Positions 47,165 to 55,149 of a stretch of 64,000 bases of DNA are shown here, piece after piece. The stretch is from Squalus acanthias. Lineage: Eukaryota. The notes beneath the pieces were generated by a model. It saw nothing but the letters and a program-made list of their open reading frames with translations. It made no database searches and had not been told where the DNA came from. The DNA lies in contig CM059431.1 of NCBI GenBank assembly GCA_030390025.1, forward strand, positions 101,744,001 to 101,808,000. The letters are read 5' to 3'. Position numbers and translations under genes: made by a program. The stretch's first letter is position 1. Every line of letters begins with the position of its first letter.

Positions 47165-47357
47165 TGACGTAAGAAAACTACTAGGCACTTGGTCTAAGCG
47201 TTAAACAAAGCTTTAATCAACTGTTTTTCAACATGGAGGTCTAGTTGTGTCCTTCACTAGTTCCTGTTAAAGAATGTCCTGAGCAAGCTGGGCCCATGCC
47301 CGAGTATTTATACTCTCCCTGGAAAGCGCCACCAGCAGGCTGCCCAGTATTATTTCA
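47165..47357 (-). mobile_element. Solo LTR of a family related to the 50700-55124 element
   Basis: TG...CA, 193 bp, flanked by taag/taag; shares tg.cgtaaga, aagctttaatcaact and agtatttat with the full element's LTR. Confidence 0.75.
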
Positions 47358-48339
47358 TAAGTCATTTCCACATGAATGACAAGATTCATGTCATTAAGTA
47401 CACCAAGTATCAGCAGCCAGAAATGATGGCAGGTCATTTCTCAAATACAACAATGTGATGGGAAACAAAACCAGAAAATGCTGCTGTGTGGAGAGAAACT
47501 GAGCCAACGTTTCGGGTTCAGTGACCGGGGGGGAGTGCTTGAAAGCTGCTATGAAGACCTAGGCATTCAGCGGAGGTCATCTTATCGCTACTGTTTGTTC
47601 TGCTATTTCCAAATAAGAATATTGAGGATGTCTTTCAAGAGGTTTTTAAATATTGATTACCTTCAAGGAACAGTCAGGTCTGCGGGGAAGGTGCCTTTCT
47701 GCTCGGCTCACTTGGTTGTACGTCTTGCCCCTGAGGTCAGAGGTTGTGTGTTCAGAACCCTGCTCCGGGAATCGAACCCCCAACACCCAGGCTGACACTT
47801 TCAGGAGTGTTGTCTTTCAGATAAGATCTTTAACCGAGGCCCCGTCTGCCTGTTCAGGTGGATGTAAGAGATCCCATAACACGAGTTAAACAAGTGCAGG
47901 AGGTTTTCCTGGTGTCCTGGCCAATATTCTTCACTCAACCAATGTAACTTTAAAAAAAAAACAGATTAACTGGCCCTTGTTCTCATTTGCTGTGTGCAGA
48001 ATTGGGTCTCACATTTGCCAACAAAATCACTTGTGATTGCACTTCCAAAGCAATTCAGTGGTTGTGATTGGGACATCCTCTGGTGATTTATCAATGCAAG
48101 TTCTTTATTTTTTTCTTCTCCCAGTTTTATAACATACTAGTAGTCTACTTCCAAGAATTTAGTTTGGTGATTTTCTGAGTTGGGATTCTCTCTCCGCTAC
48201 ATTGCTCTGTGGCATAACCAACCAGGGGGTTGTGTGTCTCGCACCAGGCTTCATTGGAAACTCTGGCAAGGGGCTGAGACGCAATGGGGAGTTGTCCAAC
48301 GCCAGGATATTCTGAATTCCTCAGCGGGCAGAGTGGTTT

Positions 48340-50120: not shown

Positions 50121-50699
50121 TAAATGATTTTGCTTTCAAAAGCATTCATGTGTGGGTGTCAGATGGGGATGTGAAACGTATTTGTATTTCCCTTGATACG
50201 TCACACATGGATACATCTTCTCCCAGTCTGTAGTAACCGTGCATTCGAAGCTTAATGACTGTTTGATACGATACTGCAAGGTATGGCTCTGCCATCACAC
50301 GTACAGGGTTTTGATTCTGGATTGATGATGGTCAACTTTATTAATGTACAGCAGACTGATAATGTAACGTCATCCAGCTTAGAGTAGGTGGTCCATGCCT
50401 TAATGTCCAGACATGCTGTCCCGTGCAAGTGTCCAACATCAATCCTCCGCAGAGTCAGTTTACAGTGATTTTTTAAAATTTCTCTCTTTACTCTTTAGGG
50501 TAATCAGAGGTAAGATCAACCAGAGCTTTAAACTTTCCTAACTAATTGGTTTTTATTGACATTGAAGTGCAACAGGTTTTACAGCTAGAGGTTGATACAA
50601 CCTTTCAGTCAGAAATGTAACACGAAACTCCGAATGGCCAATTCTTTCTGCTTCGGGAGACTGAGGGGTTAATATTCCATCAACATTCTGCGTGGTGTT

Positions 50700-50877
50700 T
50701 GTCGTAAGAGTGAACTTAAAGTAAGCTTTAATCAACTAAAAAGGTGCTACATACAAAAGAGGTCTTACTCTATGCCTCTCCAGGATCCAACTGATCAGTC
50801 CAGTATTTATCCTGGACTAATCACAGGAAGTGATGCAATAAAGTTCGAGTCACAGGAAGCTGTATTGTGTTACCACA
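50700..50877 (-). repeat. 3' LTR, 178 bp
   Basis: Identical to 54931-55124 except for a 16-bp deletion. Confidence 0.95.
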
Positions 50878-50889
50878 TTCTCCCCCCCC
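50878..50889 (-). other. Polypurine tract
   Basis: - strand ggggggggagaa directly before the 3' LTR. Confidence 0.9.
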
Positions 50890-50895
50890 AAAAGA

Positions 50896-53800
50896 TTAGG
50901 AGGCCGGGATGCTCCCTCCATTTCGTAGCCGCTGGACGAGGGAGAGCCGCACCCGTTTGGGTTCTCGTAGCGGTAGAGGGTCCCTAGCCCGTTTACCCGT
51001 CGCGGGCCGTGGACCAGAGTCCGAGTGATCCAGCCCGCTCTGTGAGGGGTCAGGACGATCCTGACTGTGTACTGGTGCCCGAACGGGTGTCGGGCAGGGC
51101 TGTGGCAGATCCGTTTCCGAGCGTACGGTACGGGGTGGATCGTGGCTGCGCGTGCGAGCCCCGACGGGCTCATAGTCAGTCTGCCCCAGGTCGGCACGCT
51201 GGAGTGAGGTACCAGCCGGCGTCAGATCCAGATCGTGATGAGAGGCACCTGGCGAGCCCAGAGATGTACCTGGTACAATATCATCCCCTGGTGTCCCTCT
51301 ATGTTTTGGCGGGCAGGGAGCCAGATCCCGCAATGACACGGTAGATTCCCGACCGTCAGGATACCGAATATAGGCGTAGGTAGGTTTGACGTCAGTGAGC
51401 TCAACCTCATCTACCAGGGGGTCATTCTTAGACGCCCGGACATATCTTCGGAGTAGCACTGGTCCCGGTGCAGTCAGCCACGACGGGAGAGATATCCCAT
51501 AGGATGAGCGACGCTGAAATCGGAAGAACCGTTCATGAGGCGTCGTATTCATGGCGGTCGAAAGGAGGGACCGTGTGGAGTGTAATGCGTCTGGAAGTAC
51601 TGCTTCCCATTGCTGGTTGGGTAGGCCCCGAGATCTCAAAGCCAGACGTACCGCATTCCAGATGATGGCGTTAAAACGCTCGACTTGCCCATTCCCGACC
51701 GGATGATAAGGCGTTGTTTTGCTGGCAGCAATACCCCGTTCCGAGAGATAGGCCTTGAGTTCTCCTGACATAAAAGAAGGGCCCCGATCCGAATGAACAT
51801 AGGATGCTATGCCACAGAAAGCAAATACCTGCTCAAGGCAGCTGATAACCGTGGTCGTCAGCATATTGGGGCAGGGAAAGGCAAACGGAAAACAGGAATA
51901 CTCATCGACCATGGTCAATAGATAAGTGTTGCGAGTTGAAGAGGGCAACGGCCCCTTAAAATCGATGCTAAGCCGTTGCATTGGCTGGGTCGCATGTATG
52001 AGTATACCACCCGAGGGGCGGAAAAACCGAGGTTTCAATTCCGCACAGACTCTGCAGTCCGAGCACATCTTCTTTACATCCCCGGTAGAGAATGGGAGAT
52101 TTCGGGACCGCACGAAGTGTAGCATGCGAGTAACGCCCGGATGACACAACCCATCATGGATGTCTACGAGCGTAGAGGGTGCCATGGCGGAGCAGAATGC
52201 TCGTGTGAGGGTATCCGGAGCCACATTCTCCTTGCCAGGTCGATAGTGGATGGTGTAACCAAAAGAGGCCAATTCCAGCCGCCAAAGCTGGATTTTATTA
52301 TTTTTAATTTTGGTCCGTTTTCGATTATCGAGCATGAAGGCGACCGATCGCTGGTCCGTGATTAAGGTAAAGTGCTGGCGAGCTAGGAGATGACTCCACT
52401 TCCGTACTGCCTCTATGATGGCTGTAGCTTCTTTCTCGACTGGAGGATAATGTAGCTCGGCCCCTTGAAAAGTCCTGGACAAAAATGCCACCGGACGACC
52501 TTCCTGATTCAGAGTGGCCGAGATCGCCATCTCCGAGGCATCACACTCAACAACAAAAGGAAGACTCTCATCGATGGAGTGAAAAGCCGCTTTCTCCAAC
52601 TGTTTTTTCAGGAGGTTAAAGGCTGCAACAGCCGCTGTGTCTAGTGGGAATGTGCTGGCCTTCAGTAGAGGTTGGATTCGGTCCGAGAAGTTAGGAATCC
52701 ATTTAGCATAGTATGCAAACAGGCCGAGGGCCCGGCGCAAGGAGGCCGGATTCTTAGGTGGCGGGAGTTCTTGGAGTGGGCGAAGCCTTTCAGGGTCAGG
52801 TTTAATGATGCCATTGCCCACACAATAGCCAAGGATGTTGATGGTTGGTTGTGACTCAATGGATTTAGCCGCATTTAATGTCAAATTACGGTGCTGGAGT
52901 GCATCCCAAAATCGTTGGAGATTGGCGTCATGTTCCCGCTGATTGCGACCTGCGACAGTAATATTGTCCAGATAAGGAAACGTATCCTTCAAGTCTTCCT
53001 GTTTGACCAGGTCATCCATTGCTCGCTGGAAGACAGCCACTCCATTAGTGACCCCAAAGGGGAGGCGACGAAATTGATACAGCCGTCCATTGGCTTCAAA
53101 GGCCGTATACTGCTTGTCTGAGACCTTCAAGGGTACCTGATGATAGGCACTTTTCAGATCACATGTTGAGAACACCGTGTACTCAGCCAATTTATTAACC
53201 ATATCATCGATGCGCGGCAATGGGTATGCATCCAAGTCCGTATATTGATTGATGGTCTGTGAATAGTCAATGCACAGCCGTTTCTTGTGAGGTTGTAGAG
53301 GGTTCTTAACAATAACGACCTGGGCGCGCCATGGCGACGAACAAGGCTCGATGATATCCTCTGCTAAAAGCCGAGAAATCTCAGCCGCAATAAAAGACTG
53401 GTCTTCCTGACTGAAATGTCGTGACTTTGTTATAATCGGTTTGCATCGAGGAGGGATACTGGTAAACAGTGAGGGTTCATCCAGTGAAGCTGCTGACAAT
53501 GCACAGAACGGTAATCGAGGTAGTATATTAGAAATAGTGAGTTCAGGTTTGGATCCGCCGAACTCAATGGTGAGCTTCTTATGCTGCTTTTGAAAATCCA
53601 GCCCTAAGATAAGATCACTACATAAGTCCTTGAGCACCAAAAGCCGGGTGGAGGGATACCTGTGACCATTAAGTGTTATTTCAACCATACAAAAGCCAGA
53701 AATTCTGGTATTAAGTGATGACTGAGCCATCGCAATTGCCTGGTCCGATGGGAAAACATGCAGCTTTAACTCTGCAACAATCTGTTCCCTAATGAAACTA

Positions 53801-54852
53801 TCAGTGCTACCGGAGTCAATTAAGGCATCTAAAGTATGTCCATTAATTGATGCTTTTGTAGCTGCATGGAATAGGTTCTGAGGACAAGCAGCTGTAATTG
53901 GTGTCGTTGCACAAAGAGTGGCTGAAACTCTATGTGTGTTTCTTCGAGAGGAAACCCGAGAGGAAGCACGATAGATTTTAGCCGGAACATCTTGATAGGC
54001 CCTTACCGGGGCAGTTCGGTAGGACTTAGCTTGATAAGCCCTCGTAGAGGCTCTTGATAGGCAAACCTTTGCAAAATGACCCTTTTTGTTGCAATGACTG
54101 CAAAACGCATTGCGAGCAGGGCAGAATTTCCGAGGGTGAAACTCATCACCACAAAAGAAGCATTTCTTAGATTGCCAAGAGGCTGCCACAGTGGGGTCAT
54201 CATCCTCTTCATCAGTGAAGTCATCAGATTGATCGTCAGGGATAAAGTCCTCCCTAATAGAGTTCACCTGTGGCCTCTTAAATTGCCTGACTGTAGTTAA
54301 GGCAGCAGACCGAGGTCTGGGCACTGTATAAAGGTCTGCATTTCTTTTTGCCAGATCTAGAGAGCAAGCCATGTCATAAGCTCTCTGAAGCTCAAGTGTC
54401 TTACTTTCCAGTAGACGCTGGCATATAAATGGGGAGGCAAGCCCGCAGATGAAAGCATCACGGATCATTTCTTCACGGTACAGCTCAGCTGAGGCCGCCT
54501 GAAAGTTACAGTCCATACTAAGTCTGCGAAGCTCTTGGAGGAATTTATCAATGGATTCCTCCGGCCCTTGTTGGGCTGTAGCTAGTAGATGTCTGGCATA
54601 GACCTCATTCGGTGTCTTAGTATATAGTCTCTTAAGCGTCCGAATTGCCTCCTCGTAACTGCCCCATTCCTCCACATACTGAAATACATTCGGGGTGACA
54701 CAGTTGATGAGTATCCGCAACTTTGAGTCATCATCAGCCTTGCAATATTCAAGAAAATTGTCAAACGTGCGATACCAGTGTTTCCACACCTTACTGGCTG
54801 CTGGGGTGTTTGGTTCCAAGTCAAGACGCGATGGTTTAAGGATGTTTTCCAT
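50896..54852 (-). CDS. Gag-Pol polyprotein, 1318 aa
   Basis: Two CX2CX4HX4C knuckles (CFFCGDEFHPRKFC, CSHCNKKGHFAKVC), protease LIDSGS, RT (DLKSAYHQ, LPFG, YLDN), RNase H (CDAS, EKE, TDQ, PDTLTR), integrase HHCC + IDF/SDRG/VERFN. Confidence 0.95.
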   Translation of the reverse strand: MENILKPSRLDLEPNTPAASKVWKHWYRTFDNFLEYCKADDDSKLRILINCVTPNVFQYVEEWGSYEEAIRTLKRLYTKTPNEVYARHLLATAQQGPEESIDKFLQELRRLSMDCNFQAASAELYREEMIRDAFICGLASPFICQRLLESKTLELQRAYDMACSLDLAKRNADLYTVPRPRSAALTTVRQFKRPQVNSIREDFIPDDQSDDFTDEEDDDPTVAASWQSKKCFFCGDEFHPRKFCPARNAFCSHCNKKGHFAKVCLSRASTRAYQAKSYRTAPVRAYQDVPAKIYRASSRVSSRRNTHRVSATLCATTPITAACPQNLFHAATKASINGHTLDALIDSGSTDSFIREQIVAELKLHVFPSDQAIAMAQSSLNTRISGFCMVEITLNGHRYPSTRLLVLKDLCSDLILGLDFQKQHKKLTIEFGGSKPELTISNILPRLPFCALSAASLDEPSLFTSIPPRCKPIITKSRHFSQEDQSFIAAEISRLLAEDIIEPCSSPWRAQVVIVKNPLQPHKKRLCIDYSQTINQYTDLDAYPLPRIDDMVNKLAEYTVFSTCDLKSAYHQVPLKVSDKQYTAFEANGRLYQFRRLPFGVTNGVAVFQRAMDDLVKQEDLKDTFPYLDNITVAGRNQREHDANLQRFWDALQHRNLTLNAAKSIESQPTINILGYCVGNGIIKPDPERLRPLQELPPPKNPASLRRALGLFAYYAKWIPNFSDRIQPLLKASTFPLDTAAVAAFNLLKKQLEKAAFHSIDESLPFVVECDASEMAISATLNQEGRPVAFLSRTFQGAELHYPPVEKEATAIIEAVRKWSHLLARQHFTLITDQRSVAFMLDNRKRTKIKNNKIQLWRLELASFGYTIHYRPGKENVAPDTLTRAFCSAMAPSTLVDIHDGLCHPGVTRMLHFVRSRNLPFSTGDVKKMCSDCRVCAELKPRFFRPSGGILIHATQPMQRLSIDFKGPLPSSTRNTYLLTMVDEYSCFPFAFPCPNMLTTTVISCLEQVFAFCGIASYVHSDRGPSFMSGELKAYLSERGIAASKTTPYHPVGNGQVERFNAIIWNAVRLALRSRGLPNQQWEAVLPDALHSTRSLLSTAMNTTPHERFFRFQRRSSYGISLPSWLTAPGPVLLRRYVRASKNDPLVDEVELTDVKPTYAYIRYPDGRESTVSLRDLAPCPPKHRGTPGDDIVPGTSLGSPGASHHDLDLTPAGTSLQRADLGQTDYEPVGARTRSHDPPRTVRSETDLPQPCPTPVRAPVHSQDRPDPSQSGLDHSDSGPRPATGKRARDPLPLREPKRVRLSLVQRLRNGGSIPAS

Positions 54853-54930
54853 GATGGGTGATTCCCTGGATCCTTAGTTCCGAGTTCGTCCAAAAAGTTT
54901 GAGTGCGAAGTTTTCCAAAGTTGATTAAAT

Positions 54931-55124
54931 TGTCGTAAGAATGAGCCTTATGCGTGGTGAACTTAAAGTAAGCTTTAATCAACTAAAAAGGTGCTACATA
55001 CAAAAGAGGTCTTACTCTATGCCTCTCCAGGATCCAACTGATCAGTCCAGTATTTATCCTGGACTAATCACAGGAAGTGATGCAATAAAGTTCGAGTCAC
55101 AGGAAGCTGTATTGTGTTACCACA
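54931..55124 (-). repeat. 5' LTR, 194 bp
   Basis: - strand TGTGGTAAC...TTACGACA with GATAAATA (55051-55058) and ATTAAA (54974-54979). Confidence 0.95.
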
Positions 55125-55149
55125 GTGTTCATCTGGTCTGTCTCTGGAA

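Follow-up and report, generated by a model that had tools for sequence, protein, structure and literature searches.

To our knowledge, self-priming of reverse transcription has been firmly shown only for the Tf elements of fission yeast. The known cases named in the cited parts of PMC7175516, PMC4600332 and PMC5341516 are Tf1 and Tf2 of Schizosaccharomyces pombe and Tj1 of S. japonicus. In Tf1 the first 11 bases pair with the primer-binding site (PBS), with RNase H cleaving after base 11 and before base 12 (extracts of PMC7175516 and PMC5341516); in Tf2 R contains the self-primer, and the cDNA is then transferred to the 3′ end of the RNA (extract of PMC5341516). Proposals of self-priming also cover the Tf1/sushi group, over a range from fungi to vertebrates, as well as Tcn1-like elements and certain lineages of plant copia (passages of PMC6317226 and PMC4600332), and passages of PMC3601003 and PMC6317226 attribute it to chromoviruses. 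Butler et al. (2001, J Mol Evol 52:260) is cited in PMC6317226 and PMC4600332 for the vertebrate Tf1/sushi group, Ty3/gypsy elements with a self-complementary PBS that are described there as chromoviruses. Here we examine an element of 4425 nt in a 64,000-nt stretch of Squalus acanthias DNA (assembly GCA_030390025.1, contig CM059431.1, positions 101,744,001 to 101,808,000 of the forward strand), called the window below. The sense strand of the element is the minus strand of the window, and its best explanation, probable when taken as a whole, is a young, abundant and compact (4.4 kb) long terminal repeat (LTR) retrotransposon of Ty3/gypsy type without a chromodomain that primes itself in the manner of Tf1.

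The preliminary description of this stretch had pointed to a self-pairing 11-mer over an ATTAAA in the LTR, with a partner only behind the 5′ LTR, and exact matches bear this out: the plus strand has AGTTGATTAAA at 54919-54929 and the reverse complement of it at 54974-54984. Read on the sense strand, the latter is the LTR word AGTTGATTAAA (54974..54984, minus strand, LTR positions 141-151), the proposed self-primer, of which the last six bases are ATTAAA (54979->54974), and the former is the PBS TTTAATCAACT (54919..54929, minus strand, reading 54929->54919), the complement of the LTR word. The partner occurs a single time on the sense strand of the element, at position 196. Two other copies of the word lie on the minus strand, one at 50727-50737 in the 3′ LTR, with no partner downstream, and one at 47212-47222 in a solo LTR of a related family (family B; the element itself belongs to family A). 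When up to one mismatch was allowed, the window held 11 matches for 1.87 expected, a number reached in 0 of 100 shuffles.

The position of the partner relative to the LTR required a correction of the LTR itself. The perfect 168-nt repeat returned by a repeat search (50710-50877 / 54957-55124) underestimates it, since the copies of the family diverge on the left at TGTGG... and on the right 26 nt past that repeat, at ...TCTTACGACA. The 5′ LTR is thus 194 nt long (54931..55124, minus strand), with TG...CA ends at which 30 copies diverge exactly. The 3′ LTR of the window copy (50700..50877, minus strand) has 178 nt and lacks LTR positions 169-184, a 16-nt gap whose sequence is present in 29 of 29 other copies examined as well as in the window's 5′ LTR. 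In all else the two LTRs are identical. The deletion (junction 50709/50710) begins 18 nt past the hexamer, takes away the 5′ arm and the loop of the predicted U5 stem and has TCA microhomology on its flanks. With the true LTR end at 54931, the partner therefore starts 2 nt downstream, at the position of a PBS. Between the CA of the LTR end and the PBS stands a single A (54930, minus strand), and ...CAA/TTT... is read at this junction in nearly all relatives. The PBS thus lies directly behind U5, has its complement inside the LTR of the element itself and lacks an initial TGG. When the LTR was shuffled by mononucleotides, a perfect complement of at least 11 nt to a word that starts 0-3 nt past the LTR arose in 6 cases out of 20000.

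A protein search of the shark's own assembly (3.7 Gb) returned 26,490 first-look candidates; the 35 places scored are all 98-100% identical, and 33 have an open frame. The comparison set for family A comprises 30 copies, the window copy (L001) among them, and 29 of these have a perfect target duplication of 5 bp, the remaining one matching at 4 of 5 bases. As the 30 copies are near-identical in LTR and leader, they provide no evidence on selection; one of them (L019) has a G->T change in the word and an unchanged PBS.

The solo LTR of family B in the window (47165..47393, minus strand, 229 nt) contains the same word, ends in ...CTTACG.CA and is flanked by CTTAA / CTTAC (4/5 bases matching). 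What it has in common with LTR-A is limited to ATAAATACT, made up of the word and GCTT, and to the ...TTCTTACG.CA end. In the genome, family B gave 1756 first-look candidates, of which 40 were scored at 97-100% identity, and the LTR-B end followed by A and TTTAATCAAC is found at 211 genomic sites, compared with 0 for a reversed-pattern control. A full copy (L039), with the target duplication AAGGT, is 73.5% identical to family A in pol and 56-60% in gag. The non-coding 5′ parts of the two families align at two islands only, namely the word with the next 11 nt (22 nt, 91%) and the LTR end with the A and the PBS (23 nt, 96%), and their leaders are unrelated downstream of the PBS. At the outer ends of both arms conservation ends together with complementarity, and past the inner ends it continues, into the GCTT behind the word and the LTR end before the PBS. 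We also looked for a third shark family with the same LTR end and another PBS, which was rejected: the pattern had 1214 matches (592 in the control), and in the 100 listed it was in essence arbitrary sequence beside solo or 3′ LTRs that had been matched.

Among 8000 candidates scored in a protein search, 1606 relatives were found at E <= 1e-20; identity among the 120 listed is 54-88% across 680 residues of the reverse transcriptase (RT)-RNase H-integrase region, 0 of these 120 have a chromodomain (PF00385) among their precomputed domains, and their source names include shrimp, copepod, tunicate, mussel (mollusc), sea anemone (cnidarian), Trichuris (nematode), and sharks and rays. Such similarity across phyla is itself suggestive of strong constraint or horizontal transfer. 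An alignment of 25 relative proteins used as query further gave 80 metagenome loci at 42-68% identity, with LTR pairs in 20 of the 37 loci examined for them. Five of the metagenome contigs (L044, L050, L059, L066 and L070), each about 4 kb long, are circularly permuted, with a head/tail overlap inside gag or pol, the outcome one would expect when tandem, one-LTR-circle or multi-copy templates are assembled.

The same plan recurs in nearly all relatives that have a leader: an LTR word ending in ...AAA, followed by GCC or ACC and a loop of 21-70 nt, then the LTR end ...CA, an A, and a PBS that begins with TTT and is complementary to the word. A scan for this signature found it at 22 of the 80 loci on the sense strand and at 1 of 80 on the antisense strand. 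The signature loci, together with one-mismatch pairs and families A and B, form a table of 29 loci, 27 of them metagenome relatives (about 44-68% identity), which contain 19 distinct 11-mer pairs, all pairing at 10 or 11 of 11 positions. A contig cut inside the word (L056) and a spurious 10-mer (L069) were excluded before covariation was counted, and a decayed pair of 7 nt (L103) and an 18-nt pair whose PBS is preceded by T (L050) stand outside the 19; two loci at 43% identity (L118 and L120) have no pair.

The LTR words differ among relatives (e.g. AGCTAGTTAAA, AGTCGAATAAA, AGCTGTTAAAA, AGTTGGTTAAA and AGTGGAATAAA), and each is complemented by its own PBS. Over the 19 distinct 14-nt combinations, 205 of the 209 cells at positions 1-11 are paired, and 7 of the 11 positions (4-9 and 11) show compensatory double changes. 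Pairing goes on beyond the 11-mer at position 12 in 17/19, at position 13 in 15/19 and at position 14 in 10/19, and the mean, 11.7 pairs of 12 in register, is only 2.7-6.1 once the register is shifted by 1-3. Position 10 is G in all 19 pairs and position 11 is A in 18, which fits an 11-nt unit, though pairing mostly reaches 12-13. This covariation shows that the helix is selected and excludes both chance and a common host primer; a selected helix of 11-13 bp between the LTR word and the PBS position is what these elements have in common. The earlier suggestion that the helix could set up priming is thereby strongly supported, by the position of the PBS, by the retention of the pair in family B and by the covariation over the 19 distinct word/PBS pairs. 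In Tf1, Tf2 and Tj1, too, the PBS beside U5 complements 11 nt of the element's own LTR/R and is not of tRNA type, and the helix has another stem-loop next to it; the present element differs in its vertebrate host, its animal relatives, the YLDN of its RT and the poly(A)-like hexamer that ends the primer word. Having no recognised chromodomain, the clade does not show that defining feature of the Tf1/sushi group. In its LTR ends it resembles the Mag C/SURL-like clade (Benachenhou et al. 2013, PMC3601003), single-ORF elements with metazoan hosts, vertebrates among them, and short LTRs (training length 174): many relatives fit the published TGTNATRT...AYANAACA (e.g. ...CTACAACA and ...CATAACA), and the window LTR (TGTGGTAA...CTTACGACA) fits it in part. 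In the papers searched, nothing was found on self-priming of Mag-type elements or on a self-primer overlapping a poly(A) signal, PMC3601003 treating these subjects separately. Tf1-like self-priming in such a clade would extend tRNA-independent priming among animals, the elements would evade host defences directed at tRNA-type PBSs, and the signature ...AAA/RCC ... CAA/TTT... could be used to annotate them.

Fold predictions are consistent with this picture. The window helix is predicted in the minimum-energy structure in all four contexts tried (mean pair probability 0.92-0.94), and in the relatives it is predicted in the minimum-energy fold with a mean pair probability >0.5 for 19 of 19 distinct pairs. 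In 18 of these 19 the minimum-energy fold opens a hairpin at most 4 nt behind the word, perhaps comparable with a U5-IR; in the window copy a small hairpin, GCTTA-CTT-TAAGT (54961..54973, minus strand), is predicted directly behind the word in the centroid structure. A U5 stem-loop (54934..54952, minus strand; CGTAAG...CTTACG in other copies) is predicted in the fold of one family copy (L002) and is weakened in the window copy by a private G->A change at 54951 (LTR position 174, CpG to CpA), which breaks a G-C pair of the predicted stem; the 27 other copies of equal length all have G there.

The word ends in a hexamer resembling a poly(A) signal. The statement that the LTR sense strand has no AATAAA/ATTAAA besides this ATTAAA, downstream of a TATA-like GATAAATA, also holds on the corrected 194-nt LTR, and in LTR-B it is likewise the only such hexamer of the sense strand. 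Downstream of it there are CA dinucleotides at +16, +19 and +23, and then a U-rich stretch. The word's last six bases read AATAAA in 5 and ATTAAA in 4 of the 19 distinct pairs, i.e. canonical in 9/19 (15/29 by locus); 7 more are one base off ATTAAA (GTTAAA x4, TTTAAA, ATTGAA, ATGAAA), and the other 3 are TTAAAA, TGAAAA and TTAATA. A hexamer-like motif stands inside the helix in 19 of 19 pairs, and where the word holds a canonical hexamer it does so at exactly -6 (9/9). From -150 to the LTR end only four other canonical hexamers were found, at +26 (L045), +5 (L047), -147 (L070) and -133 (L111). The last three bases of the word are nearly always AAA, and the three behind it are GCC or ACC in 17 of the 19 pairs, GCC in 12. 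Since the overlap recurs in relatives, it is a trait of the clade and not a quirk of the window copy, even though the canonical form is not universal. The ATTAAA of the word is most likely also the poly(A) signal of the LTR, its use as such being something we infer. A genome search for processed copies (LTR word, 0-30 nt, A12) gave no match, and poly(A) tails were found on none of the 80 metagenome contigs. Of about 10 million reads from a poly(A) RNA-seq run, 0 could be placed, an outcome that weighs neither for nor against transcription, and three further runs of uncertain type resemble DNA, with very deep coverage of flanking repeats and with empty-site joints.

We favour, with moderate confidence, the view that an LTR retrotransposon self-primed in the Tf1 manner is at hand, with one 11-mer as each arm of its priming helix. 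Within the genomic RNA, AGUUGAUUAAA in the LTR would pair with the PBS, which starts 2 nt past U5. The element's RNase H would then cut just behind the word (AAA/GCU), and the freed 3′-OH would prime minus-strand DNA, two steps that are modelled on Tf1. Minus-strand strong-stop DNA would copy the 45 nt between the cut and the PBS, and the repeat for the first strand transfer would be the 15-25 nt from the cut, behind the hexamer, to the poly(A) site, 10-30 nt behind the hexamer. With one hexamer at the end of the primer, both ends of the transfer repeat would be fixed and a short repeat would be present at both RNA ends. The conserved position of the hexamer thus suggests a way in which very short LTRs may accommodate promoter, repeat, poly(A) signal and primer in less than 200 nt. 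The signal also has little room elsewhere, because loops can be as short as 21-31 nt (L107, L044 and L070). As a side effect of pairing, the hexamer would be concealed in its 5′ copy.

Several observations weigh against this view. The hairpin of 75 nt is specific, but its stability is nothing out of the ordinary (-10.4 kcal/mol, z = -1.31) and is matched by 20 of 200 shuffles. Ten of the 19 distinct words are without a canonical hexamer and two of these have one outside the helix (L045 and L047), so that the role of the A-rich 3′ end could be in priming or cleavage instead of polyadenylation. The RT has YLDN in place of YLDD, and its enzymology may therefore differ from that of Tf1. We infer where transcription starts, where poly(A) is added and where the cut falls, and the TATA-like motif, 66 nt (A) or 82 nt (B, TATAAATA) upstream, fits no simple start at the first base of the word. 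If transcription started at the word, as in Tf1, the hexamer would be 5 nt from the cap and no masking would be needed; with a start about 30 nt past the TATA-like motif it would be about 45 nt from the cap, and suppression could be by structure, promoter proximity or the U1 small nuclear ribonucleoprotein (U1 snRNP); and with a start downstream of the hexamer there would be no 5′ copy at all.

Suppression of the 5′ hexamer leads to the alternative that survives best, in which suppression of the 5′ poly(A) signal depends on this helix and the 3′ copy, without a downstream partner, stays free, so that priming and the choice of poly(A) site are coupled. For family copy L002 the folds give the hexamer an unpaired probability of 0-0.17 in the 5′ context, compared with 0.12-0.77 in the 3′ context, and in nine relatives with both contexts it averages 0.12 (5′) and 0.57 (3′), being higher at the 3′ end in 8/9; the exception (L070) is a permuted contig whose supposed 3′ context contains the PBS. 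However, such a difference is built in, since only the 5′ end has a partner, and it does not count as independent evidence. The hexamer-like motif within the helix in all 19 pairs would suit such a switch, as would the very short leaders (1-20 nt from PBS to ATG in many relatives), since premature polyadenylation would abolish expression. There are precedents as well: the parts of PMC2645353 cited here state that the polyA hairpin of human immunodeficiency virus type 1 (HIV-1) represses 5′ polyadenylation, in agreement with what the preliminary description had said of that virus, and a passage of PMC3694450 describes the use of different 5′ and 3′ RNA structures in foamy viruses. The HIV-1 hairpin differs in being local and in standing at both ends of the RNA, the distinction being made by U3 enhancers and U1 snRNP, whereas the partner arm here is the PBS, found at the 5′ end alone. 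Against such a switch, the helix is weak and AU-rich (duplex -9.8 kcal/mol) and forms only once the PBS has been transcribed, at about the time when the downstream element emerges; with a start at the word only 5 nt would separate the hexamer from the cap, and closeness to the cap would account for a silent 5′ copy as well; and the canonical hexamers of L045 and L047 sit in predicted loops outside the helix. A required suppression of this kind thus appears rather unlikely to us, and masking is the less likely half of the proposal when set beside priming: the folds suggest that masking may occur, but the evidence does not support a need for it. We would give slightly less credence still to the fullest version, where one hexamer does three jobs, as the 3′ half of the self-primer, as the edge of the RNase H cut that fixes where the transfer repeat begins (5′) and as the poly(A) signal that fixes where it ends (3′), with pairing to the PBS silencing its 5′ copy. 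If true, it would be a minimal RNA switch that couples the choice of polyadenylation to the priming of reverse transcription in a metazoan-wide clade.

The A-rich end of the word (...WTAAA, then GCC/ACC) could instead be what RNase H cleavage or RT initiation requires, the likeness to a poly(A) signal being incidental and other or variant signals being used. Positions 1 and 3 pair in 19/19 and position 2 in 17/19, AAA and TTT are (nearly) invariant, more strictly so than a poly(A) signal needs, the GCC/ACC behind the word in 17/19 resembles the context of a cut site, and more than half of the words (10/19) are non-canonical. However, neither LTR-A nor LTR-B has another canonical hexamer, 5 of the 10 non-canonical relatives have neither a canonical hexamer nor a listed weak variant between 20 nt upstream of the word end and the LTR end, and the loops of 21-31 nt would force any intra-LTR, post-word cleavage signal into or beside the word. 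We therefore regard an incidental hexamer as distinctly unlikely.

Less probable again, and in our opinion very unlikely, is a transcription start downstream of the hexamer. The word would then belong to U3, so that the RNA would carry it at its 3′ end alone, the primer would be cut from the 3′ copy, and pairing would be long-range or between two packaged RNAs, with no 5′ poly(A) signal to suppress. This would remove the problem of 5′ polyadenylation altogether, but it departs from the only tested model, Tf1/Tf2, in which the self-primer lies in R at the 5′ end of the RNA (PMC5341516, cited passage). It would also leave an R shorter than about 25 nt whose start, behind an A, does not resemble a typical initiator, and the predicted local geometry, a helix with an abutting stem-loop in 18/19, suggests folding in cis. 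Finally, although tRNA priming is the rule for LTR elements, it is extremely improbable that a host RNA (a tRNA or a fragment of one) is what pairs with the PBS and that the match to the LTR is a coincidence or a chance inverted repeat, given that the PBS does not open with TGG, that it varies in step with the LTR word over 19 distinct pairs, which no single host RNA explains, that chance gives such a complement in 6 of 20000 shuffles, and that the window has 0 tRNA genes and 0 Rfam matches at E <= 1.

The remaining parts of the element fit a Ty3/gypsy retrotransposon. An open frame of 1325 codons (50896-54873) contains its single gag-pol ORF (50896..54852, minus strand), which encodes two CCHC knuckles followed by protease, RT, RNase H and integrase in Ty3/gypsy order; the best solved relatives are Ty3 Gag-Pol (E = 7e-59) and Ty3 RT (E = 3e-52), and a domain search gave no Chromo match at E <= 0.01. 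The YLDN of the RT is its motif C (52963..52974, minus strand, residues 634-637), which aligns with YLDD of Ty3 RT. The N stands in 30/30 copies of family A, in family B and in 21 of 24 aligned sequences with a residue at this site, the window copy counted, and the other 3 have D; as these families look recently active, the Asn seems to be tolerated, and we are not aware of an earlier description of it. The polypurine tract GGGGGGGGAGAA (50878..50889, minus strand) immediately precedes the 3′ LTR. In the 5′ LTR the TATA-like GATAAATA (55051..55058, minus strand) occupies the middle of a perfect 7-bp inverted repeat, AGTCCAG...CTGGACT (55044-55065), in a region (LTR positions 55-86) that matches itself in reverse, and family B (L031-L038) has GAGTAT-AA-ATACTC around its TATAAATA. 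A dimeric factor may bind here, in place of a TATA box or in addition to one.

The target-site duplication AACAC stands at 55125..55129 on the 5′ side and at 50695..50699 behind the 3′ LTR (both minus strand, the same 5 bases).

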